From contig JAVCCU010000030.1 in the NCBI GenBank assembly GCA_030765335.1, forward strand, positions 5,324-69,323: a DNA stretch of 64,000 bases, in the 5' to 3' direction. Positions 1 to 19,523 of the stretch are shown here, piece by piece (the stretch's first letter is position 1; each line of letters starts with the position of its first letter). Under the pieces are notes generated by a model, which was not told where the DNA came from, did no database searches, and worked only from the letters and a program-made list of their open reading frames with translations. The stretch comes from Candidatus Kaelpia aquatica. Its GTDB lineage: Bacteria > Omnitrophota > Gorgyraeia > Kaelpiales > Kaelpiaceae. A program made the translations under genes and the position numbers.

Positions 1-1156
1 ATATCGTATAAACAGCAAAAATATTACTTTGCCATGCAGCAAGTGTAATAGAGGTCATAGCTAGTGAATTTAAATCAACCGCAGGAAGTTTTACTTCATC
101 AATCATTATATGTAGACCAGGTCTTCTATAAGAAATATCCTCAATAGATCCTGGATTAATTATTGCTTGCCACACAAACAACCATAGATTATAACGGAAA
201 ACATATTTTAGTAACCCAAAATATTGTTTTTTCTCAAAACAATAATTTATCTTTTTTAAATCTTCAACGGAAATAAGTTCCTTAAAACTCTTTTGTTCCA
301 CGTTTAAATACACAGAATTTCTGTACAATGGAAAATTATTACCAATTTTATTTAAAACTAAATTTAAATTATATCTTAATAAATTAAATTCATAAAAATA
401 TCTATGTTCAAGAACACCGTTGGTTAATTTGTTTAATATGCTTATTAAATCAGCAGAATTCAACTGAGCAGAAGTGGGAAGTTGATACCAACCGACAGAC
501 ATACAGGGGGTAAATATAAACCCTTTTATAAAATTGTTATGCTCCAAAGCAAAATCTAATAAGCTTTTAACTTCTTCTTCATTGATATTACGAGCAACAG
601 TGACTGAAAGCCACACTTTAATCTTGCCAGATCTTTTCAAATTATTTAAGGCTTCAAGTTTTGAATAATGACAAGTAGAATCCCCTCTTAAGCGTGTAGC
701 AATATTCTCATTAAGGCTATCGATAGACAAAAATATTTTTTTAACACCAGCTTTAATAAGCTTATCTACATAATTTTCATCAGCAAGCTTAATTCCATTT
801 GTATACAAAATAGGTACATTCCCAGACAACTTAATCACTTTAATTATATCAAATAGATCATCCCTTAAAGTCGGTTCTCCTCCTAAAAGAAGAATTTTTT
901 TATTTTTCCCAATCCGAGATAAAATCTGTCGTATGGTTTCAAGGCTCATTTCATCAAAGCTAAAACCCCCTTCTTCATTCTGAGCATAACAAACTTTACA
1001 AAACATATTACACCGATTAGTTATGGCTAAAGCAACATTTGAACTTCGTTTTTTAATATTTCTCCAGTTATTTTCATTTATAGGAATCCTTAAATCTTCA
1101 TAATCAAGTATGCTAGTATCTAGCTTCGCATAGTTATTACAAATTTTCATCTGCAT
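1..1156 (-). CDS. Radical SAM protein (5' portion; C-terminus lies beyond the window start)
   Basis: Minus-strand ORF reading MQMKICNNYAKLD...AITNRCNMFCKVCYAQ, with a canonical CxxxCxxC 4Fe-4S/SAM motif near the N-terminus. A strong SD (GGAGGTGA) sits 6 nt upstream of the ATG at 1156. It is absent from the ORF track only because it runs off the window edge. Confidence 0.75.
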   Translation of the reverse strand, partial: MQMKICNNYAKLDTSILDYEDLRIPINENNWRNIKKRSSNVALAITNRCNMFCKVCYAQNEEGGFSFDEMSLETIRQILSRIGKNKKILLLGGEPTLRDDLFDIIKVIKLSGNVPILYTNGIKLADENYVDKLIKAGVKKIFLSIDSLNENIATRLRGDSTCHYSKLEALNNLKRSGKIKVWLSVTVARNINEEEVKSLLDFALEHNNFIKGFIFTPCMSVGWYQLPTSAQLNSADLISILNKLTNGVLEHRYFYEFNLLRYNLNLVLNKIGNNFPLYRNSVYLNVEQKSFKELISVEDLKKINYCFEKKQYFGLLKYVFRYNLWLFVWQAIINPGSIEDISYRRPGLHIMIDEVKLPAVDLNSLAMTSITLAAWQSNIFAVYTI

Positions 1157-1267
1157 TTCTCACCTCCTAATTGACTTTATCACTCAATTATAGTTTATCT
1201 CCATTTTCCATACAAATTCAATCAAATTCGTAAATAAATAAACCTGCTTGATTTTATATAAAATTTA

Positions 1268-2251
1268 TCACTTTGCTTTAACAGGACATTGTTTACACAT
1301 AAACACATCTCTTCCCTGAGGAGTAATTAAATATTTAATTATTCTACCGACATTACTCCAATTACTTTTCTTTAATTTACACCACATCTCTTCAATACTC
1401 TCGTTATTTATATTCCCCATAAAAGTATTTTCTTGTTTTAGGCAACAAAAATGAATATCGCCGCTTGGAAAAGCAGTTAGCATAAAACAATTATGCTTTA
1501 AAATAAACTTTTTAATTTTTTCCAAAATAATGCTTGGACTTAAAAATTGATTTTGGCTTAAAAACAAACTTTTTATTTCAATAATATCTTCAACAGAAAT
1601 CATTTCACTTATCTCCAAATCTTCTGCATTCCCTACAGGCATAACTAACTTAAACGAAACCTTGGGATTAAATTCACGTATTATTGTAAGTAAATCTGGA
1701 AAATATTTTTTCAACCCTTTGCTGTACCGAATAGCCAAATGAAACTTCATGTCTAAATCTTTTAGAACCTTAAAACAGTTATAATAATTGCTAATTGGTA
1801 TATGTTCCAAATGAAATGCATCAAAACTGATAAATATTTTTCTTATCCCATATTTGTTTTTTAATATATTCAATTTCTCATATGTCTCTTTATTATCCTG
1901 AGCCCAGAGACATGAAGTAATAATTGAAATTCTATTAGAGGAATAGTATTTTTTAAGTTCTCTAACCGCATATAATAATTTATTAAAAACAGTAAATGGC
2001 TCACCACCTGAAATTCTGACATTTCTTACACCAATATTTTTAAACGATTTTGACAAAACTGTTATATTTTCTTTAGACATATCGCATTTATCCAACTTCC
2101 CATAAACACAAAAAGAGCAATTTGCAGCACATCTTGTTGTAATAAGCAAGTCTCCAAATATAAAAGGAAATAATTTATAATAAAATATACTTGAATAATG
2201 CAATACTTTCTGTATTTTAGATGTGCTCATTCTAATATCAAAATTAATCAC
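1268..2251 (-). CDS. Radical SAM protein with Cys-rich C-terminus (SPASM/twitch-like auxiliary cluster candidate)
   Basis: TTRCAANCSFCVYG carries the CxxxCxxC motif, and GGEP follows in the glycine-rich SAM-binding region. The C-terminal 70 aa hold 6 Cys (HFCCLKQ...WCKLK...MCKQCP). Confidence 0.75.
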   Translation of the reverse strand: MINFDIRMSTSKIQKVLHYSSIFYYKLFPFIFGDLLITTRCAANCSFCVYGKLDKCDMSKENITVLSKSFKNIGVRNVRISGGEPFTVFNKLLYAVRELKKYYSSNRISIITSCLWAQDNKETYEKLNILKNKYGIRKIFISFDAFHLEHIPISNYYNCFKVLKDLDMKFHLAIRYSKGLKKYFPDLLTIIREFNPKVSFKLVMPVGNAEDLEISEMISVEDIIEIKSLFLSQNQFLSPSIILEKIKKFILKHNCFMLTAFPSGDIHFCCLKQENTFMGNINNESIEEMWCKLKKSNWSNVGRIIKYLITPQGRDVFMCKQCPVKAK

Positions 2252-2287
2252 TCAATTCACTCCTTTTCTTATATGTAACAAGTACAA

Positions 2288-3847
2288 TTAGTTAGATTTA
2301 CTTGTAGTATCAAACAAGCTTACTATAACACCATCAAACTCTTGCTCTTGAATTTTTGGGTATCGCTGTTCAAACCAGCTTTTAACCGCTAACGATTCAG
2401 GATCTAGCTCTCCCTTTCTATCCCAGGAAGACGAAATAACCCAAACTCTGTCAGGGGATGGTGACAAAAATTCTTTTGATAAATTTATTATAGTCTTATT
2501 CCAGCTTTTCTGCGGCTCTATTAATTCTTTTAACACGTATACATCCTGAGAAGATGGTATATAAAAAAAGTAGAAAATATTTTCCTCACCCCAGTAATAA
2601 GGAATAGAGCAATTCACGCTCATGCTAGAAAAACCAACTGCATCGAACTTTTGCAAATTATTTTTGATATAATTTACAATCGGCTTAAAAGGCTCTTTTA
2701 TATAGTTCCCATATCCAGCAGAAGTAACTGTAGGAGCTGGGGCATAATTCTTATAATAATTTAAAATAGAAGAACCACACAAAAAAAGATATAACAAAAC
2801 AAGAATTTTTCCTACGTTCTTTTTTCTAAATAAAATAAATCCATAACTAAGCATAGATAAATAAAATGGTAAAAATATTATCATTTTTCTTATTAGGTAT
2901 ACCGATCTAATTTGAGAGACTAAAAATATTAAAAAAATTGGAATAAAAAATAGAATAAAAAAATTTAGCACTGCATTTATTTTTTTTCTATCATGGATAA
3001 AACAACTCAAAATTAGAAAGGGTGTAATGATTCGCGCAGCTAAGTAACTTATATTGTAACTATTATATCCTACATTAATAACATCCCAGGTGCAAATCAA
3101 AGTTTTTAATGAAGGTTTATTTATCCAGAAATTATCTTTTCTAAGCACATTTATTCCTTCTTGCATAATCATTAACAACCAAGGTAAAAAAAATAAAAGG
3201 CTCACCATCCAGCACATTATTACTTTAGGAACTAAACTCCATTTTTTCTCTAAAAAAAGAATGATTAATTCAGGAATAATAAGCAGAACTATAAAATAGC
3301 TGGAATACAACCCTAAAGTCGTACTAATGATAAATAAAATCCACAAATGAATTTTGTATTCCTTTTTTAGCAAAGAAATAAAAAAATAAATACTACAAAT
3401 AGAAAAGAATGTTGCTAGCGCTCCTCCTCTGGCTTCCTGAGAATACCATATATGCATAGGAGAAAAACTTAAAAGAACAGCAGAAATTAAACCTATATGT
3501 TTGTCAAAAAGAAGAGTTGTGAGTTTATAGATCCCAAAAATGCTTAATAACCCAAAAAACATTGCTGTAAATCTGAAAATAAATTCCGACTTTTGGAAAG
3601 CAAAAAGCAATACTGATGTGACTAATGAATAAAGCGGCGTCGAATCATCGCCGCTTATAGATTCGCTACCGATAGCTATATGCGCAGTCAAAGCCTCATC
3701 ATACCAGAGGTCATTAAATCCCAAATGATATAATCTTAGAGTTAAAGCTACAGTTAATATGAGTAATAACGGTAGGTACTTTTTTATGATTCGATACATA
3801 TTATAAAAATATAGAAATAAACCATACTGTTCCAGAGAATAACCCAA
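2288..3847 (-). CDS. GT-C family membrane glycosyltransferase (ArnT / PMT-like, GT39/GT83 type)
   Basis: About 11 predicted TM helices. The N-terminal loop motif NDLWYDEALTA matches the DE/DD loop of ArnT/PMT enzymes, and the roughly 150-aa C-terminus is soluble. The likely true start is the internal Met (MYRIIKKYLPLLL, about 3799), which removes the overlap with the upstream gene. Confidence 0.65.
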   Translation of the reverse strand: MGYSLEQYGLFLYFYNMYRIIKKYLPLLLILTVALTLRLYHLGFNDLWYDEALTAHIAIGSESISGDDSTPLYSLVTSVLLFAFQKSEFIFRFTAMFFGLLSIFGIYKLTTLLFDKHIGLISAVLLSFSPMHIWYSQEARGGALATFFSICSIYFFISLLKKEYKIHLWILFIISTTLGLYSSYFIVLLIIPELIILFLEKKWSLVPKVIMCWMVSLLFFLPWLLMIMQEGINVLRKDNFWINKPSLKTLICTWDVINVGYNSYNISYLAARIITPFLILSCFIHDRKKINAVLNFFILFFIPIFLIFLVSQIRSVYLIRKMIIFLPFYLSMLSYGFILFRKKNVGKILVLLYLFLCGSSILNYYKNYAPAPTVTSAGYGNYIKEPFKPIVNYIKNNLQKFDAVGFSSMSVNCSIPYYWGEENIFYFFYIPSSQDVYVLKELIEPQKSWNKTIINLSKEFLSPSPDRVWVISSSWDRKGELDPESLAVKSWFEQRYPKIQEQEFDGVIVSLFDTTSKSN

Positions 3848-4586
3848 ACATGCGAAATCTAAACCTTGTTTTAAAAGTTATACCTTTAAAAAATATTTCT
3901 CCAAGCATGTACAATTGGAATATAGATAATGCCATAAAAGCAACCATATTAATTATTCTAAACGTACATAGATATACGCTAACCCCAATACCCAAAATAC
4001 TAAAAATCATGCAAACATAATTAATTATTTTTTTACCATAAAAAACAGCACTGGTATTAATACCCGCAGAGACATCTTCATCTATGTCTCTTACCTCATG
4101 TACAAGCTGCATAATTCCAAGTAACAAAGTGAGTAACAAAAAAATTGAAAAAGATCTTAAATCAAAATTGTCAACTTCAAAATACCCTATTAAAAAGATC
4201 TGCGGAAAAGCCAACATACAACATAAGGTTCCGATTATAGGAATCTTTTTAAAACGAAAAGGTTTTACAGAATATATTATTTGTAGTGCCAAGAACAGAG
4301 CAAGAGGTACCCATTGCTTGGATGAGATAAGATGTCCACATATTATTAACAAAACTAATGGATATATAAACAATATAGATTTTTTTTCATGGTCAGTAAA
4401 ATCATTCAAAGCATAAATAAAAGCTAGAGCAAAAGAACAAATTAATAAAGTAAAGACCCCAATACCAGCTGTTTTATCGGCTATTAAAGTACCTAGAATA
4501 ATAAATCCTAAGTGATAAAGCCAATCATGAATACGATATACATCTATTTTGTCAATTTTCCTATTAATTGAAAATATTCTTTCCAT
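3801..4586 (-). CDS. UbiA-superfamily polyprenyl transferase (DGGGP-synthase/DPPR-synthase-like)
   Basis: Polytopic membrane protein. The first Asp-rich motif is ALNDFTDHE (NDxxDxE). The second is VRDIDEDVSAGINTSAV, matching the DxxxDxxxGxxTxxV motif of UbiA-family prenyltransferases. Confidence 0.6.
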   Translation of the reverse strand: MERIFSINRKIDKIDVYRIHDWLYHLGFIILGTLIADKTAGIGVFTLLICSFALAFIYALNDFTDHEKKSILFIYPLVLLIICGHLISSKQWVPLALFLALQIIYSVKPFRFKKIPIIGTLCCMLAFPQIFLIGYFEVDNFDLRSFSIFLLLTLLLGIMQLVHEVRDIDEDVSAGINTSAVFYGKKIINYVCMIFSILGIGVSVYLCTFRIINMVAFMALSIFQLYMLGEIFFKGITFKTRFRFRMFGLFSGTVWFISIFL

Positions 4587-4864
4587 TTTTGATAAATATT
4601 AACAAATTAAAGATAGAAAATCTACTGTCTTTTTAGAGCACTTATTTCTTGAATATTCTAAATTGCATCTATAAATAAGTATACCTTGATATGGAAGTCC
4701 CTTTAATCCGTTTTAATTCATATTTGCAGTAACTAATATGAATAAAAAATTTTAATTAATCTATAGCTAAAAGAAACTACCTGATATTTTTTTAAAAACA
4801 AAATAAATTTTATACAATCCGAAAAAATCTGCTTTTCCTATAATGATTGCTTTATACAACTCTT

Positions 4865-6150
4865 TTACCAAATTCTCTCGCTGTATTCTAACTGCCATTT
4901 TGCGCAATAATTTAACACCCAAATGCAATAGTTCATTTTTTTACTATTCCAAAACTCCATTAATTTAATTCCATCTTTCAATCCTATTCTATTCTGAATA
5001 TCCTGCGCAAGTTTGGTCTCAGGAAAAGGTTGGAAATTAAAAAAATGTGTAACAGAAGGAGAAAGCTTTTTTATATACCAAACACTTTTTCTAACAGTAT
5101 ATTCTGTTTCCTCATAACAACCTATAATCATATAAATCAACGAGGCTATGCTATATCTTTTTAAATAATCTAGAGCTTTTTCAATATTTTTATTGGTTAT
5201 TTTTTTGTTGTAAACCCGACTACGGATATCTTCATCGCCAGATTCCACTCCAATGCCTACCATTATGCATCCTGCTTCAGATGCAAGTTTAGCCCATTGA
5301 TTAGTCATTTTATCTGCTCGAATATGGCAAAACCACTTTATTTTTTTATACAACCACGATTTCTTATAAAGTGAGCAGAATTCGTAAAACCAATCGATAT
5401 CCAACCCAAAATTATCGTCCACAAAGTCAATGCACCGAAACCCTTTATTCCAAAATCTACCTGTTTCCGTCTCAATCTCTTCAATTATACATTGAGGACT
5501 GCGCAGTCTAAAATATTTTCCCGGAAAGTTTTTTCTGATTGCTGGAGAAGAAACAAAAGCTACAATCATACAAACAGCCTCTTGAAACTACAAATGGTAG
5601 GGATGAAAAAGCTGGTTTTGATGTATTTAGAAACACCAAAAATATCTCTTTTAGGAAATGGCAAACTATCTAAATCGCCTTTAAAAGGCCTTGACTCATT
5701 TTTTATGATCTCCTGATTATTTTTTTTATACCAAATTCCTTGAACAAAAGGCTCCTCGTCTTGCTCTAATCTATCTAAATACTCTAGAAATGCTTCCTCC
5801 CCTTCTCCAACACAAACTGCATCCACTCCTGAATACCTTAACATCACTTCGGGCAACAAAGTAGAATAAATACCTCCAAACATAATCAAGATAGAAGAAT
5901 GTCTCTGCTTAAGAAATCTTGCAATCTCTACTGCGTAATCAATATTGGCACTGTTTACTGAAAAAGCAGCTACACCAGGTACATCATTTTGAACTTCACT
6001 TAAAATAAATTTTTTATAATTTTTGGCACAAAATGCCAAATCTATAAGCTGGACTTTATGTTTTATAGAAACAGAACTAACAGTATATGGCAGCCCTAAA
6101 TATAAATACGGATAAGGGCTTTGTGGACAATTAATTAAACTTACTTTCAT
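4865..6150 (-). pseudogene. Degenerate, split class-B (B12-binding) radical SAM paralogue. ORF 5566-6150 is the B12-binding domain and ORF 4865-5569 is the rSAM/C-terminal part
   Basis: Both pieces are collinear paralogues of the intact gene at 6147-7568 (EGEEAFLEYLD vs EGEEALLELCD; KNFPGKYFRLRS vs SNFPKVYRLRS). The Cx3Cx2C cluster motif (CPFNCAFCSNF in the intact copy) is replaced by AFVSSPAIRKNF. The reading frame is broken at that exact position by a 4-nt ATGA overlap. Confidence 0.55.
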
Positions 6151-7568
6151 TGATTTCGAAACATTCCAACAAAAAAATCAATTTTATTTGCAAAATTATT
6201 ATAAAATTGACGCGAAAAAATTCTTTTTATACTTCTTGCTGGCGAAAGATAAAACGCTTTATATGCTTTATTTAGCATAGTAAATAATTCTTTTTTTGAC
6301 AATGATTCTTCCCATACAGGAGGAGAAAAATTTTCAAACGGATTTAAAACAAAATTTTTCCAAATATCATCGGAAAACAAGCCTCTTTCTACAGCTAAAT
6401 CATACAACTTTGTATCAGGAAATAACGTCAATATGGAAAAAATTGCATAATCCGGTTTTAATTTTCTAGCAAAATTTATAGTTTTTGCAATATCATTGTG
6501 GGTTTTTTCATGCGGGCAGCCAATCATAAAATAGGCTAAAGATAAAATTCTAGTTTTTCTAGTTAAATAAAATGCTCTTTTTGCTTCTTCTATTGTAATG
6601 CCTTTATTTAAAATACATAGCCCTTCATTTGTAGATGTCTCAACACCGTAATTAATAGCTCTGCACCCTGCCCGTTTAGCTAAAAATAGCATTTTTTCTT
6701 CAATATTGTTGACTCTTGCTCTAAAACTCCAGCTAATATTTAAATTCCTATTCAAAATCTCTTCACTTATCTCAATTACTCGTGAAGGAGTAATATTAAA
6801 TGTTTCATCATAAAAAATCAAATAATTAAAACCCTGATGTTTACATTCTTCCATCTCATCAACAATATTTTTTACTGAACGGAGACGGTATACTTTTGGA
6901 AAATTACTGCAAAATGCACAATTAAAAGGGCAGCCTCGACTGCTAATGATAAACGCGGAAGATTTTACGCTATTTTGAAATTTTAAATACGATTTATCTA
7001 ACTTTATTACCGAGCTTCTATCCGGGAAAGGTAACGAATCTAGATTTTCAATTAATCGAGTTTCATCTGAAAGATCAATATCTATTTTATCTTTAGTTAT
7101 CAGACCTTTAATTCCTGACAAATCAGCTTTTTCTTCTAAAGCATCGCAGAGCTCTAATAATGCTTCTTCACCCTCTCCTAAAATTACAGAATCAATGCAG
7201 GAAAAACTAAGAGATTCTCTGGGAAACATGCTAGCATGGACTCCTCCTAAAACAACGTGAATCTGGGGTAAAATATCCTTAATTAATTTTGCCAATGAAA
7301 TCATATCTATCCAATTAACCGTATAGCCAGTAATTCCAATTAAATCGGGTTTATAAAATGATAAAAAATCTCTGATTTTCAAAACTGAAGCACTATCTTC
7401 TTTACTACAATCCAATACTTCAACTTTATGTTTAGAATTATACTGCAGATAAGCGGATAAATATAAAAGCCCCAATGGCATAGAATATTTCTCCCTTGCT
7501 ATAATAAATTCGGGCAATTGAGAATAAATCATATTTTCTAGGGGAGGATTGATTAGCAATATTTTCAC
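6147..7568 (-). CDS. B12-binding (class B) radical SAM enzyme
   Basis: The N-terminal cobalamin-binding domain fold is followed by SSRGCPFNCAFCS (CxxxCxxC) and a full-length rSAM core, 473 aa in all. The LDSLPFPDR linker is typical of B12-rSAM proteins. Confidence 0.85.
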   Translation of the reverse strand: MKILLINPPLENMIYSQLPEFIIAREKYSMPLGLLYLSAYLQYNSKHKVEVLDCSKEDSASVLKIRDFLSFYKPDLIGITGYTVNWIDMISLAKLIKDILPQIHVVLGGVHASMFPRESLSFSCIDSVILGEGEEALLELCDALEEKADLSGIKGLITKDKIDIDLSDETRLIENLDSLPFPDRSSVIKLDKSYLKFQNSVKSSAFIISSRGCPFNCAFCSNFPKVYRLRSVKNIVDEMEECKHQGFNYLIFYDETFNITPSRVIEISEEILNRNLNISWSFRARVNNIEEKMLFLAKRAGCRAINYGVETSTNEGLCILNKGITIEEAKRAFYLTRKTRILSLAYFMIGCPHEKTHNDIAKTINFARKLKPDYAIFSILTLFPDTKLYDLAVERGLFSDDIWKNFVLNPFENFSPPVWEESLSKKELFTMLNKAYKAFYLSPARSIKRIFSRQFYNNFANKIDFFVGMFRNQ

Positions 7569-7589
7569 TATTTAGAAAGTAAGAATTGC

Positions 7590-8162
7590 TTATTCTAATA
7601 ACAATTCGTTTTTTACTCTATAGAGAGTATCTTTTTCATAGGGATTCTGTATATATTTTTCAGCTCTTTCCAGAGACTCAAACGCTTTGTCTTCCTCCCC
7701 TAGCTTCAGATATATTTCAGCCAAAGTGATATAACACAATCCTTTTTCGGGGTTGATTTCAATAGCTTTATTAATCAATTTAAAAGCTTTATCATATTCC
7801 ATTTTTACTTTATAACACTCAGCCAAATTGTTATAAACACTTGAGTCTGAGTAATCAGGTTTAATATCTAGCGCTTTTTGATACCATACAATAGCACTTT
7901 CATATTCACCTTGAATAATATATATATTACCCACTTTCTTACAAAAAGTATAATTACTAGGGTCTAATTCCAGCCACTTTTTAAATTCATGCTCAGCCAA
8001 AAGGAATTCCCCCTCTTCCACAAATATCCTTCCTAGCTCTAAATTCTTTTCAACTTCACTATTACCTAATTCAGGATTTTCTTCTCCAAAAACAGGTAGA
8101 GAGTAACACACAATGAACAACATAATAACTACTGTATATATAGATATAATTTTCCCCATCAT
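7590..8162 (-). CDS. TPR-repeat protein with signal peptide
   Basis: N-terminal hydrophobic signal peptide and repeated TPR consensus (W-LG-Y...A...Y-KAL...P). A strong SD (GGAGGTGAAT) lies upstream. Confidence 0.75.
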   Translation of the reverse strand: MMGKIISIYTVVIMLFIVCYSLPVFGEENPELGNSEVEKNLELGRIFVEEGEFLLAEHEFKKWLELDPSNYTFCKKVGNIYIIQGEYESAIVWYQKALDIKPDYSDSSVYNNLAECYKVKMEYDKAFKLINKAIEINPEKGLCYITLAEIYLKLGEEDKAFESLERAEKYIQNPYEKDTLYRVKNELLLE

Positions 8163-8368: not shown

Positions 8369-9637
8369 TCAATTTATAACTGCTGTACCACCCATATAAG
8401 GACTTAAAGCGCTAGGTATTGAAAAAGAACCATCTTTCTGCTGATAGGTTTCAAGTAAACATATAATGACTCTGGCAAACGCAAGGCCAGATCCATTAAG
8501 AGTATGAGGATACACCATACTACCGTCTCTTCTTTTCAACTTAATATTAGAGCGTCTAGCCTGAAAATCAGTGAAATTAGAGCAGCTCGACACCTCAAGC
8601 CAACGTTCTAACCCAGGAGCCCAGGCCTCTAAATCATAACATTTAGAAGCTGCGAAAGAAAGATCCCCGGTTGATAATACTACAACCCTGTACTTTAACC
8701 CTAAAAGCTGCAATACCTCCTCAGCATCTTTAGTTAGTTTCTCATGTTCATCCCAAGAAGATTCAGGAGTAGTAATCTTTACCATCTCAACCTTATCAAA
8801 CTGATGTACTCTAATTAAACCTTTAGTATCTTTACCATAAGACCCTGCCTCTTTTCTAAAACAAGGAGTATAGGCCGTATAATATATAGGTAGAGCGTCT
8901 TCGCCTAAGGTCTCTCCTCTATGTATATTTGTTACAGGGACCTCAGCCGTAGGAATTAAGAAATAGTCTTCGCCTTCTAGCTTATACATATCATCTTCAA
9001 GCTTAGGTAACTGTCCTGTAGCAGTCATACTATCTCTATTAACAAGCAGAGGTGGCCAAACTTCACGATAAAGATGTTTTTCAGTATGCAAATCCAACAT
9101 GAAGTTCATCAATACTCTAACTAATTTAGCACCCAAACCTTTAAATAGAATAAAATTAGAACCTGTTATCTTGGTAGCTCGAGAGAAATCTATAATATCA
9201 AGATTTTCTCCAATCTCAACATGGGTTAAGGGCTTAAAATCAAACTTTTTACTTTCTCCCCACTCTCTAACTACTTTATTAGATGAAGCATCCGGTCCAA
9301 CTGGAACTGAATCATGAGGAATATTAGGGATATTCAATAGTAGTTCTTGCACCTCTTCTTCGATTTCTCTTAATTCCTGCTCTTTAAAACCTATCTTATC
9401 AGAGAGCTCTTTTAGCTCTTTTAATTTACCATCTATACTTTTGCCTTCTTTTTTTAATTTCGGAATCTGTTTATTCTCCTTATTATGTTTATGTCTTAAA
9501 TCATCAACCTCTTTTATGATCGCTCTTCTTCTCTCATCTAATTCCAAAAGATTGTTTATATCTAATTCCATGTTGCGATTTTTCAAAGACTCTCTTATTA
9601 AATCGCTATTTTCACGAATGAATTTTAAATCTAGCAT
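8369..9637 (-). CDS. serS: Seryl-tRNA synthetase
   Basis: N-terminal coiled-coil arm and a class II core with TAEVP and GLIRVHQFDKVE motifs. Full-length, 422 aa. Confidence 0.95.
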   Translation of the reverse strand: MLDLKFIRENSDLIRESLKNRNMELDINNLLELDERRRAIIKEVDDLRHKHNKENKQIPKLKKEGKSIDGKLKELKELSDKIGFKEQELREIEEEVQELLLNIPNIPHDSVPVGPDASSNKVVREWGESKKFDFKPLTHVEIGENLDIIDFSRATKITGSNFILFKGLGAKLVRVLMNFMLDLHTEKHLYREVWPPLLVNRDSMTATGQLPKLEDDMYKLEGEDYFLIPTAEVPVTNIHRGETLGEDALPIYYTAYTPCFRKEAGSYGKDTKGLIRVHQFDKVEMVKITTPESSWDEHEKLTKDAEEVLQLLGLKYRVVVLSTGDLSFAASKCYDLEAWAPGLERWLEVSSCSNFTDFQARRSNIKLKRRDGSMVYPHTLNGSGLAFARVIICLLETYQQKDGSFSIPSALSPYMGGTAVIN

Positions 9638-18161: not shown

Positions 18162-19523
18162 TTAAATTATAGGCCTTACCCTACATTTAACTTCCAGATC
18201 ATCAGTTATTCTCCTGGCTTTTTCAATGGAGAACCCCTCTATATCTAAAAAACTTACTTCTACCCAAGGTATATATTTTTTTGACTCTTTGATAAAATCT
18301 ACAACCCCATTAAAAGTATCATCTCCGAAACTAGGCTTACAGAAAGAATTATACCTGTCTTTATCCTCGACATTCAGACTGACAGATATACTATCAATAT
18401 AGCCTTTGAGTTCGGGTAAGAGATTTCTTTTTGAGATTAAATTACCGCATCCATTAGTAACAATGCGGACTCTATAACCCTTGCTTTTTAAACCCTTGGC
18501 TATCTCTTTTAACTCTTTAAACCTAAAGAAAGGTTCTCCTATACCGCAAAAAGTAATTTCATCAAATCCTTTCTCTCTTTCTACAGCCTTTAAAACCTCA
18601 CTCACTTTAGGCTCTTTCCTAAGCCTTAAATTATGCCCCGCAAAATAATCACTACTTAAACCACTGCAAAAATAACACTTATTGCTGCATCTATTTGTAA
18701 GGTTTATATAAAGACCGTCTTTATATCTATATAGATACTTGGAAGACATATTAATGCTGCCTATACCAAATATATTCTTAGAATTTAACGCTAAGGAACG
18801 CCTAAGGTCCTCTTCTGTAATCGAGTTTTCATTTAAAACAACTTCCAAAGAATCTTTTAAAAATGCAGGCTCATTTCTACTGCCTCTTCTTGTTGAGGGC
18901 GCAAGATAAGGAGAATCTGTCTCAAGCAACAGCCTATCCAACGGGGTATGCTTAACAAGTTTTTTTAAATCTCGGCTAAACGTCAAATTAGTAGCATACG
19001 ATATATAAAAACCTCTCTTTAGACACTGCTTTAAAAAATCAATATCTCCGGAGAAACAATGCATAATAACCTTAGGAGAAAACCTCTTTATATTATCTAG
19101 AACCGACAATATGTCCTTGCCGGCTTCCCTATTGTGCACAACAAGCGGGAGATGGTTAAAATTCTGCCACAATCCAAGCAGTTTCTCTAACATTAATATC
19201 TGACTCTTAGAAGTTGAACTCTTTCTATAATAATCAAGCCCTATCTCCCCAAAAGCAACAACCTTCTTCTTCCTAAGCAGCTTCTTGAAAATCAACAAAT
19301 CTCTATCGTGAAAAGATTTTGTATTATGTGGATGAGACCCTACGGCAGCATAAATATTCTTAAACTTTCTTGCAATAGAGAGGGATTTGAGAGAGGTCTC
19401 TAAATCAATTCCTAATACAACCATATACTCAACACTATCTGCTCTAGCTCTATCTATCACTCTTTTTAAATCGAATTTGAACTCTGGGTGCCAGAGATGG
19501 GAATGAGTATCGACAAGATACAT
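18162..19523 (-). CDS. TatD-family hydrolase fused to a C-terminal radical SAM domain
   Basis: The N-terminal ~260 aa form a TatD TIM-barrel (VDTHSHL...; GEIGLDY; HCFSG). The C-terminal ~190 aa carry NRCSNKCYFCSG (CxxxCxxC) plus GIGEP. Confidence 0.8.
   Translation of the reverse strand: MYLVDTHSHLWHPEFKFDLKRVIDRARADSVEYMVVLGIDLETSLKSLSIARKFKNIYAAVGSHPHNTKSFHDRDLLIFKKLLRKKKVVAFGEIGLDYYRKSSTSKSQILMLEKLLGLWQNFNHLPLVVHNREAGKDILSVLDNIKRFSPKVIMHCFSGDIDFLKQCLKRGFYISYATNLTFSRDLKKLVKHTPLDRLLLETDSPYLAPSTRRGSRNEPAFLKDSLEVVLNENSITEEDLRRSLALNSKNIFGIGSINMSSKYLYRYKDGLYINLTNRCSNKCYFCSGLSSDYFAGHNLRLRKEPKVSEVLKAVEREKGFDEITFCGIGEPFFRFKELKEIAKGLKSKGYRVRIVTNGCGNLISKRNLLPELKGYIDSISVSLNVEDKDRYNSFCKPSFGDDTFNGVVDFIKESKKYIPWVEVSFLDIEGFSIEKARRITDDLEVKCRVRPII

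Follow-up and report, generated by a model that had tools for sequence, protein, structure and literature searches.

At the start of a 64,000-nucleotide stretch of the Candidatus Kaelpia aquatica genome (Omnitrophota), hereafter the window, lies a minus-strand cluster of radical SAM (S-adenosylmethionine), prenyltransferase, and glycosyltransferase genes (window positions 1-8162). Judged from sequence and predicted structure, this cluster and its relatives may direct the assembly and modification, without oxygen, of an envelope glycolipid built on isoprenoids or of a lipid-linked glycoconjugate close to it, a reading in which we place even confidence. It draws on protein families, folds, conserved gene order, co-occurrence across lineages, and the erosion of the cluster in the Kaelpia genome, and from these we infer every substrate and chemical step. 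We propose an isoprenoid lipid as the substrate of this gene set because gene order is conserved among relatives, UbiA and Tes-like genes co-occur with B12-binding and SPASM radical SAM genes, and the fold of the Tes-like protein (TesL), fusions within the UbiA clade, and terpenoid neighbours of the U32 protein point the same way. The initial annotation of this stretch had proposed an accessory cluster, dense in radical SAM genes around a UbiA-type prenyltransferase and a GT-C glycosyltransferase, with a probable role in tailoring isoprenoid lipids or lipid-linked glycans, and the tests that we ran support that proposal.

Ca. Kaelpia aquatica, an anaerobe of the anoxic zone of the Antarctic Ace Lake, has been characterised as a fermenter with Rnf and FeFe hydrogenase, in a description that does not mention the cluster (PMC8542988). 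Our literature searches on the gene combination, on TrsS, and on Kaelpia likewise found no description of the cluster or of its pathway, as had been anticipated. Neither radical SAM tailoring of isoprenoid lipids nor glycosylation by GT2/GT-C is new, and all of the domains fall into known superfamilies. In the literature we found no description of how the operon is arranged, of its dedicated UbiA subfamily, of the TesL subfamily (single-cluster, lacking the zinc ribbon), of the U32 subfamily attached to it, or of the presence of the set in both Omnitrophota and a DPANN archaeon.

The seven co-directional loci annotated downstream of serS (8369-9637) are all present, with serS directly upstream of them, and their families were confirmed by Pfam. 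Together with the gene that follows them outside the window, the features are:

7590-8162, minus strand: tetratricopeptide repeat (TPR) protein, 190 amino acids, secreted or anchored, with TPR_1, TPR_2, and TPR_8 Pfam matches; first gene after serS
6147-7568, minus strand: B12a, intact class B radical SAM protein, 473 amino acids (PF02310, 68 bits; PF04055, 63 bits)
4696-6150, minus strand: B12b, pseudogene of a second B12-binding radical SAM paralogue, lying in three frames; intact at 490 amino acids in relatives
5566-6150, minus strand: B12b fragment with the B12-binding domain only (Pfam)
4865-5569, minus strand: B12b fragment with the Radical_SAM domain only (Pfam)
4587-4695, minus strand: deletion scar at the site of a 256-amino-acid GT2 glycosyltransferase, which lies between B12b and UbiA in the related loci L002, L004, L005, and L007
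3801-4586, minus strand: UbiA-fold intramembrane prenyltransferase of a distinct subfamily, 261 amino acids (PF01040, 47.1 bits against a cut-off of 34.2)
2288-3799, minus strand: GT-C glycosyltransferase (PMT_2, ArnT/PMT-like), 503 amino acids (PF13231, 53.3 bits against a cut-off of 26.1)
1268-2251, minus strand: SPASM radical SAM protein, 327 amino acids, with a SPASM/twitch-like Cys-rich C-terminus (PF04055, Fer4_12, SPASM PF13186)
1-1156, minus strand: TesL, Tes-like radical SAM protein, 385 amino acids, complete (Radical_SAM); its stop codon begins at window position 1
L001 5204-6406, outside the window, next gene after TesL: U32 protein (Peptidase_U32, PF01136), 400 amino acids

The genes are packed as tightly as had been claimed, with 1 nt between UbiA and GT-C and a 4-nt overlap between B12a and B12b. 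The last radical SAM gene, which was thought to run off the window edge, is complete, as only its stop codon crosses coordinate 1. A 100%-identical contig (L001) extends past that coordinate, and the predicted continuation of the cluster amounts to exactly one gene, that of the U32 protein; a 470-bp spacer and then an unrelated secreted-protein gene follow, so that the operon ends with U32. The TPR protein, initially called a lipoprotein, has a hydrophobic N-terminal signal or anchor and no canonical lipobox (the sequence reads LFIVC, then Y). The GC content of the cluster is 27-32%, compared with 35-43% in neighbouring housekeeping genes. At about 29% GC, stops are expected at about 8% of codons and an open frame of at least 261 codons has a calculated p of about 1e-10; the open frames of 190-503 codons are therefore beyond chance.

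A comparison of gene neighbourhoods, with relatives found by searching with the UbiA and Tes-like proteins, showed that the set is syntenic in several related genomes. In L004 and L005 the order is B12a (473 amino acids), B12b (490), GT2 (256), UbiA (261), GT-C (503), SPASM radical SAM (330), TesL (385), U32 (400), a sulfatase-like gene (462), and CysD/CysN. In L007 it is serS, sulfatase-like, TPR, split B12a, B12b, GT2, UbiA, GT-C, SPASM, TesL, and U32, and L002 carries GT2, UbiA, GT-C, SPASM, and TesL. The window proteins are 55-75% identical to those of these close relatives. The position of the sulfatase-like gene varies (after U32 in L004 and L005, after serS in L007), and a TPR orthologue of 188 amino acids occupies the same position in L007, the TPR gene being missing from L004 and from the more distant L095.

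Measured against these relatives, the Kaelpia cluster is an eroded version, because the GT2 and sulfatase-like genes are lost and B12b is dead. No remnant of GT2 was found anywhere in the window by tblastn, the B12b remnant and UbiA lie about 110 bp apart, and the same search found no sulfatase-like gene in the window. The decayed gene was first taken for a copy of the intact B12-binding enzyme, but it is a distinct paralogue (30% identical to B12a) that matches the intact 490-amino-acid B12b of L004 at 57-61% identity in several frame-shifted segments (tblastn). It has at least three lesions, what is left of it is spread over three or more reading frames, its alignment crosses a stop codon, and its CxxxCxxC motif (CLYDCSFC) sits in the third frame, with both class B domains still recognisable; the same split occurs in an independent assembly (contig L003). 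L007 carries a different lesion, the split B12a, and erosion thus recurs in the clade. With GT2 and the sulfatase-like gene missing and B12b dead, the Kaelpia copy would make at most a simplified product or use genes located elsewhere. These differing erosion states among close relatives mark the pathway as dispensable and in flux.

The window copy could accordingly be viewed as a non-functional remnant, in which the juxtaposition of genes is real, the pathway is dead in the Kaelpia genome, and the remaining genes are drifting. The lesions of B12b, the deletion of GT2, the absence of the sulfatase-like gene found in L004 and L007, the recurrence of erosion in L007, and the low GC content of the cluster relative to its housekeeping neighbours all favour such a state. 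We nevertheless consider it improbable, since six genes of 190-503 codons are still fully open in 29%-GC DNA, the surviving genes are 62-75% identical to their orthologues with the U32 alignment the most conserved of all, and the cluster sequence is identical across several independent assemblies from different samples.

The module also extends beyond the close relatives. In distant Omnitrophota (L093-L095; identity to the window proteins 43% for UbiA, 39% for TesL, and 67% for U32), the core order is GT2-UbiA-B12-GT-C-TesL-U32, and upstream lie a farnesyl/geranylgeranyl diphosphate (FPP/GGPP) synthase (266 bits), a second UbiA resembling digeranylgeranylglyceryl phosphate (DGGGP) synthase (DGGGPS) and ChlG, a variant radical SAM gene, a B12-binding radical SAM gene, several polyprenyl-phosphate GT2 genes, a second GT-C, and WbuX. 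A metagenome-assembled genome of a marine member of the Omnitrophota (L017, JAHJGZ010000199, 1-15624) has the order rSAM, methyltransferase, B12, rSAM, SPASM, rSAM, UbiA, Tes, Tes, B12, rSAM, where rSAM denotes other radical SAM genes. In this locus, a UbiA gene belonging to the subfamily of the window protein and a gene for a SAM methyltransferase are surrounded by nine or more radical SAM genes, among them two zinc-ribbon Tes-family paralogues, two B12-binding genes, and the SPASM gene; no GT2 was found among the ten open reading frames (ORFs) scanned, and a weak GT-C-like fragment lies at the contig end. In an Aenigmatarchaeota genome of the DPANN group, likewise assembled from a metagenome (L013, JBKHHD010000001, 1-13760), the order is SPASM, ATP-grasp, Tes-like, B12-type radical SAM, sulfatase-like, a 646-amino-acid membrane protein, SPASM, GT2, Wzx, and UbiA. 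Its Tes-like gene belongs to the same subfamily as TesL (E=1e-51), and hhalign assigned the prenyltransferases of these two loci to the UbiA subfamily at 99.8% and 99% probability. The presence of this module in L013 implies either cross-domain transfer or an ancient module shared by two ultra-small lineages.

A Tes-like profile search of genome contigs returned 80 Tes-family loci, among which L013 and L017 rank first and fifth by similarity to the window protein; most of the others are generic Tes-family genes, and the Kaelpia genome itself was not returned by this search. L011, a high-GC locus with a Tes-like gene, two SPASM genes, UbiA, and ICMT, was tried as a distant orthologous cluster and rejected, as the relationship of its UbiA and SPASM proteins to those of the cluster is no more than generic (hhalign probability 42%; BLASTP E of about 1e-3 to 1e-4).

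Both membrane proteins fall within the families first named for them, by Pfam for UbiA and GT-C and by structure matching for the UbiA fold. The AlphaFold2 model of the prenyltransferase (pLDDT 87), with an all-alpha polytopic fold, matched DGGGPS, AfUbiA, UBIAD1, ApUbiA, and Rv3806c in Foldseek at TM-scores of 0.62-0.75, the best solved matches being DGGGPS (7BPU/6M31) and AfUbiA at 0.73-0.75, with Rv3806c (8J8J) at 0.70. The suggested likeness to DGGGPS therefore stands as the best structural match, by a marginal difference from the phosphoribosyltransferase (0.75 against 0.70), and fails at the level of the family, as the DGGGP synthase (EC 2.5.1.42) equivalogs were missed by a wide margin (PRK12882, 30.1 bits against 296; PRK12883, 20.7 against 353). 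Scores against UbiA-, MenA-, and MqnP-type NCBIfam models were negligible, and the NCBIfam model for decaprenylphosphoryl-5-phosphoribose (DPPR) synthase gave no match. The conserved motifs are NDxxD, YSxKPxRxK, and HExx[D/H]xxxD; the third Asp of NDxxDxxxD is replaced in the first Asp motif (NDFTDHEKK), and invariance in the second is confined to the last Asp, the His, and the Glu. Among NCBIfam models, PRK12875, an unnamed 'prenyltransferase' that may represent lycopene elongases, is nearest to the window protein and to five of the ten members of the wider clade that were scanned.

The first word-index searches suggested that this UbiA subfamily was rare (about 10 members), a view that was dropped when a full HMMER search gave at least 75 cluster representatives at E<1e-30. 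Among the HMMER matches listed, three are fusions. P0137 (745 amino acids, from the representative library), a close member at E=3e-55, joins the UbiA subfamily domain to a C-terminal domain of the sulfatase/alkaline-phosphatase superfamily, and its layout of a membrane domain and an outer catalytic domain is that of LtaS and EptA. The other two are more distant clade members, P0224 combining geranylgeranyl reductase (GGR) with UbiA, and P0272 combining a GGR fragment, CruF, and UbiA.

For the radical SAM proteins, assignments were judged by the curated cut-offs of NCBIfam, and none of these proteins reaches the cut-off of any housekeeping or named family. As such, MiaB, RlmN, HemW, MoaA, BchE, and other housekeeping assignments were rejected, in agreement with the initial placement of these enzymes outside housekeeping roles. 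TesL scores 138 bits against TrsS and 128.4 bits against Tes (NF045702, cut-off 450), both below cut-off, and the NF045702 match is limited to the core (residues 40-261). A profile of the TesL subfamily matched the glycerol dialkyl glycerol tetraether (GDGT) macrocyclic archaeol synthase GDGT-MAS (7TOL) at E=1e-49, compared with 6e-23 for MoaA, and the AlphaFold2 model (pLDDT 78) aligned in Foldseek with 7TOM over 363 columns at a TM-score of 0.69, compared with 0.44 for MoaA as the next fold. The length of this alignment indicates that the C-terminal domain is Tes-like too. The three cysteines of the CxxxCxxC motif (C49/C53/C56) are invariant. On its predicted structure TesL has the framework of Tes, yet it is not a member of the Tes family.

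Tes, Hbs/Gms (SPASM), and GrsA/B and Hgm (B12-binding) constitute the known radical SAM toolkit for archaeal isoprenoid lipid tails (bioRxiv 10.1101/2023.10.20.563219), and some of these enzymes have bacterial homologues for which membrane-spanning lipids are the suspected substrates (bioRxiv 10.1101/2023.10.20.563219; PMC11868695). The cluster contains candidates for each of these classes. The Cys-rich C-terminus noted on one radical SAM protein corresponds to a SPASM domain that passes marginally (PF13186, 23.7 bits against 21.5), and its five cysteines are conserved in three orthologues; this protein reached no NCBIfam family, the best score being 49 bits against a cut-off of 300 for YydG. 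B12a, which is 62% identical to its L004 orthologue, combines an N-terminal B12-binding domain with a radical SAM domain carrying CxxxCxxC, as in class B. The B12-binding proteins are nearest to BchE, HpnJ, and the 'lipid biosynthesis' model TIGR04072, and B12a missed every cut-off (BchE, 183 bits against 481; HpnJ, 151 against 578; HpnR, 113 against 650; TIGR04072, 142 against 360; PhpK, 124 against 600).

SPASM and B12-binding radical SAM enzymes can also be imagined to have a ribosomal peptide or the TPR protein as their substrate, with the GT-C enzyme O-glycosylating the product. This peptide- or protein-maturation scheme appears highly improbable to us. The weak best matches of the SPASM protein and of B12a and B12b do include enzymes of ribosomally synthesised and post-translationally modified peptides (RiPPs), namely YydG, ApyD, and rSAM_ocin_1, PMT-type GT-C enzymes glycosylate proteins, and a TPR protein leads the operon. 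However, all RiPP-family scores are far under cut-off, the TPR gene is missing from L004 and L095, and the UbiA protein, the Tes fold, and the isoprenoid links would be left unexplained. The RiPP reading was rejected because a search upstream of the cluster and in the SPASM-TesL spacer yielded no conserved small precursor ORF, but only a conserved AT-rich box and a ribosome-binding site.

The 110-nt SPASM-TesL spacer (window 1159-1267) carries a TTGATTGAATTT box and a GGAGGTGA ribosome-binding site, both of which are kept in the spacers of L002, L004, and L007, lineages that are 55-63% identical. The conserved box between SPASM and TesL may act as a promoter within the operon or as a site of regulation.

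The U32 protein (PF01136, 39.7 bits against a cut-off of 22.4; nearest solved structure, the U32 domain 5D88) represents a distinct 400-amino-acid subfamily that has no NCBIfam name. Its three-sequence alignment has a mean column identity of 85%, the highest of all alignments made, and ten invariant cysteines. We surveyed the neighbourhoods of full-length relatives in 80 metagenomic loci (L098-L177). Relatives at 63-81% identity adjoin a Tes-like gene, those at 46-51% (L102-L105) form tandem U32 pairs beside UbiA294, variant radical SAM, and B12 genes as in L093, and those at 35-45% occupy other gene contexts. Neighbours over the 80 loci include squalene-hopene cyclase (SHC; 14 loci), isoprenyl-diphosphate synthase (IPPS; 10), B12-binding radical SAM (8), IDI-2 (7), DXS (5), and GGR-like genes (3), as well as type III polyketide synthase (12) and ICMT-like methyltransferase genes (8). 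A chorismate-mutase/DAHP-synthase fusion lies directly upstream of U32 in 10 of the 80 loci. The U32 enzymes UbiU/V use prephenate as oxygen donor (PMC10990095), and since prephenate is the product of chorismate mutase, this fusion fits prephenate as the oxygen donor of the U32 protein.

Several of these neighbourhoods are of interest in themselves. In L102-L105 the tandem U32 pair is reminiscent of UbiU/UbiV heterodimers and is flanked by B12-binding radical SAM genes. A number of operons, e.g., L150, L153, L156, L162, L167-L169, and L171, have the order IPPS, chorismate-mutase/DAHP-synthase fusion, U32, (GGR), and SHC, and an alternative order is TetR, U32, SHC, DXS, IPPS, and IDI-2. The operons with SHC suggest prephenate-dependent anaerobic hydroxylation of a cyclised terpenoid, and we found no paper linking U32 to SHC. 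In L117-L130, L142, L155, and L172, the U32 subfamily lies beside genes for a type III polyketide synthase and an ICMT-like membrane methyltransferase; we presume that these loci resemble an oxygen-independent counterpart of the Streptomyces srsABC phenolic-lipid operon, with U32 replacing the flavin hydroxylase.

This protein also bears on another possible product, a prenylated aromatic lipid. The UbiA enzyme would then prenylate an aromatic head group, the U32 protein would hydroxylate the ring anaerobically in the manner of UbiU/V, and the B12-binding radical SAM enzymes would C-methylate it, giving a quinone-like or phenolic compound. Aromatic prenylation is the classic UbiA reaction, and the characterised U32 substrates are, to our knowledge, all aromatic or heteroaromatic rings; the polyketide synthase and ICMT-like neighbours of U32 relatives (12 and 8 loci) would fit as well. 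Within the Omnitrophota clusters, however, no aromatic-precursor gene was found, and known quinone pathways make no use of GT2/GT-C or of a Tes-fold enzyme. Moreover, UbiA/MenA/MqnP-type scores were negligible, and the host is described as a fermenter in a paper in which quinones are not discussed (PMC8542988). We regard an aromatic product as unlikely.

Turning to the glycosyltransferases, the GT-C protein is 74% identical to its L004 orthologue and has an acidic YDE motif (LWYDEALTA) directly after the first transmembrane segment; a sequence search of the PDB gave no match for it. The GT2 protein, present in L002, L004, L005, L007, and L093, is ArnC/PpgS-like, and its likeness to ArnC, PpgS, and AglJ in the relatives points to a polyprenyl-phosphate glycosyltransferase. 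No dedicated flippase (GtrA, SMR, or Wzx) was called in the Omnitrophota loci, and a Wzx-type gene occurs in the DPANN locus L013. The sulfatase-like protein (462 amino acids in L004 and L005) matches arylsulfatase, EptA, and LtaS models, and the CxPxR formylglycine motif was not found in its sequence. The flanks of L004 (1631-2419, 14316-16368) and L005 (13848-15884) carry an inositol-monophosphatase/CysQ-like gene, the sulfate-activation genes CysD and CysN, and a gene for a 678-amino-acid phosphodiesterase-family protein. These flanks, which have no counterpart in the window, hint that the product may be sulfated or that sulfur metabolism is linked to the cluster.

It is possible, though we hold this more tentatively than the lipid reading, that the radical SAM enzymes modify a polyprenyl-phosphate-linked sugar (by C-methylation, oxidation, or ring contraction) rather than the lipid, that UbiA produces a further donor, as decaprenyl-phosphate phosphoribosyltransferase does, and that GT-C decorates an envelope polymer or a protein. 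The cluster would then amount to an elaborate three-component periplasmic glycosylation system. All intact versions have GT2, UbiA, and GT-C side by side and translationally coupled, the GT2 of the relatives is ArnC/PpgS-like, the L093-type version carries four polyprenyl-phosphate GT2s, two GT-Cs, and the sugar amidotransferase WbuX, and L013 has its Wzx flippase. The structure of Rv3806c fits the UbiA model nearly as well as that of DGGGPS. Sugar tailoring is known for B12-binding and twitch/SPASM radical SAM enzymes, as in GenK and BtrN. MoeK5 is a further example (cited in bioRxiv 10.1101/2023.10.20.563219). Donor tailoring of this kind would, however, give no account of why TesL as a whole protein has the fold of GDGT-MAS, why L093 encodes an FPP/GGPP synthase, why members of the wider UbiA clade are fused to GGR and CruF, or why the U32 subfamily has terpenoid neighbourhoods, and L017 combines UbiA, Tes, and B12 genes with no GT2 in the ORFs scanned.

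If an isoprenoid envelope glycolipid is the product, the steps may be arranged as follows. The UbiA-subfamily enzyme would attach a prenyl chain to an acceptor within the membrane, the chain being supplied in one relative (L093) by its own FPP/GGPP synthase. TesL, the SPASM radical SAM protein, and one or two B12-binding radical SAM proteins would act at unactivated lipid carbons, by C-C coupling or cyclisation and by methylation, a step that we model on the action of Tes, Hbs/Gms, Grs, and Hgm on archaeal lipids. The U32 Fe-S protein would add a hydroxyl group without O2, probably from prephenate. GT2 would load a sugar onto polyprenyl phosphate, GT-C would transfer it at the outer face, and the sulfatase-like protein of the alkaline-phosphatase superfamily may add or remove a phospho or sulfo group.

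Several observations weigh against this proposal. TesL lacks the N-terminal zinc ribbon PF23545, and TesL-type sequences have neither the pre-core CxxC nor the C-terminal Cys of true Tes, i.e., the auxiliary-cluster cysteines; tail-to-tail coupling therefore cannot be assumed. The structural match of UbiA fails to separate DGGGPS-like from phosphoribosyltransferase-like enzymes, the radical SAM proteins as a group fall short of every curated cut-off, and the known U32 substrates are rings, as stated above. In the 64-kb window, no geranylgeranylglyceryl phosphate synthase (GGGPS), glycerol-1-phosphate (G1P) dehydrogenase, or isoprenyl synthase was found. The likeness of L011, on the sequences compared, is limited to domain composition. 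Finally, the eroded window copy may be on its way to loss.

Among known systems, archaeal GDGT synthesis and tailoring (DGGGPS, Tes/GDGT-MAS, Hbs/Gms, GrsA/B, and Hgm) is built from the same enzyme classes as the cluster, i.e., UbiA-fold, Tes-fold, SPASM radical SAM, and B12-binding radical SAM proteins, and the likeness includes the whole-protein match of TesL to GDGT-MAS and DGGGPS as the best solved match of UbiA. In contrast to the archaeal system, the cluster is bacterial (Omnitrophota) with one DPANN version and forms a single operon that includes GT2/GT-C and U32. Its TesL has no zinc ribbon or auxiliary clusters and scores 128 bits against 450, its UbiA scores about 30 bits against the 296 of DGGGPS, its SPASM protein matches no AhbD/Hbs-type model, and neither GGGPS nor G1P dehydrogenase was seen in the window. 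Three-component periplasmic glycosylation (ArnC/ArnT, GtrB/GtrC, CsbB/YfhO, and Ppm1 with GT-C) is resembled by the intact relatives, which pair an ArnC/PpgS/AglJ-like GT2 with a PMT_2/ArnT-like GT-C in one operon. Here the cluster differs in having no identified GtrA/SMR-type flippase in the Omnitrophota loci, a UbiA gene between GT2 and GT-C, and four or five radical SAM genes plus U32 in addition, while the window copy has no GT2.

With the mycobacterial decaprenylphosphoryl arabinose pathway (Rv3806c and GT-C arabinosyltransferases), the cluster shares the combination of UbiA fold and GT-C (8J8J, TM-score 0.70), but it has no DprE1/E2-type epimerase genes, its UbiA is 11-12% identical to Rv3806c, and the DPPR-synthase model is unmatched. 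The U32 domain and conserved Cys clusters are shared with the oxygen-independent hydroxylases UbiU/UbiV, TrhP, and RlhA, whereas the cluster U32 is a single gene in most versions (tandem in L102-L105) and has a terpenoid/lipid context rather than one of ubiquinone or RNA. With the UbiA type of lycopene elongase/hydratases (LyeJ/CrtEb with CruF), the links are PRK12875 as the nearest NCBIfam model and one distant UbiA-clade member fused to CruF and a GGR fragment; the similarity is distant (E of about 1e-12 to 1e-25), and the cluster contains no carotenoid genes.

Radical SAM tailoring of isoprenoid tails (Tes, Grs, Hbs/Gms, Hgm) is so far established in archaea, and bacterial Tes homologues have no proven role. 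The cluster is a clonable gene set with which archaeal-style modified isoprenoid lipids could be tested in candidate phyla related to the Planctomycetes-Verrucomicrobia-Chlamydiae group, and it bears on the 'lipid divide' and on sedimentary biomarkers. With the U32 subfamily, found in terpenoid and phenolic-lipid clusters beside a prephenate-supplying enzyme, prephenate-dependent anaerobic hydroxylation would no longer be confined to ubiquinone and RNA. A bolder hypothesis, which we consider rather doubtful, is that the cluster marks an undescribed class of membrane lipid common to ultra-small, probably host-associated Omnitrophota and DPANN archaea: a prenyl glycolipid with chains coupled or cyclised by a stripped-down Tes homologue, methylated by B12-binding radical SAM enzymes, and hydroxylated by U32 without O2. 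If this were true, bacteria would have an archaeal-style way of making isoprenoid lipids that span the membrane or are made rigid by other means, and orphan lipids of anoxic waters and sediments would gain a candidate biological source.

Rfam and ARAGORN returned nothing relevant in the cluster region, and promoter and terminator scans gave no more matches than shuffled sequence. Outside the window, some 210 bp past the U32 stop codon (L001 6617-6660), the sequence GGAGGCGTGGCAGAGCGGACTAATGCGGCGGTCTTGAAAACCG resembles the 5' half of tRNA-Ser(UGA); it has the acceptor, D arm, and anticodon arm but no 3' half, and was not called by ARAGORN or Rfam. This tRNA-like half, located where the low-GC cluster ends, may be a scar left by an insertion or deletion. 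As far as sampled, the remainder of the window is ordinary, with genes for RtcB, IlvD, alanine racemase, TsaB, ThiL, MtnA, MetRS, HolB, and others. Within it, on the minus strand at 18162-19523, a 453-amino-acid ORF unrelated to the cluster has an unusual fusion architecture, in which a complete TatD-type hydrolase (228 bits) is joined to a C-terminal radical SAM domain (46 bits).

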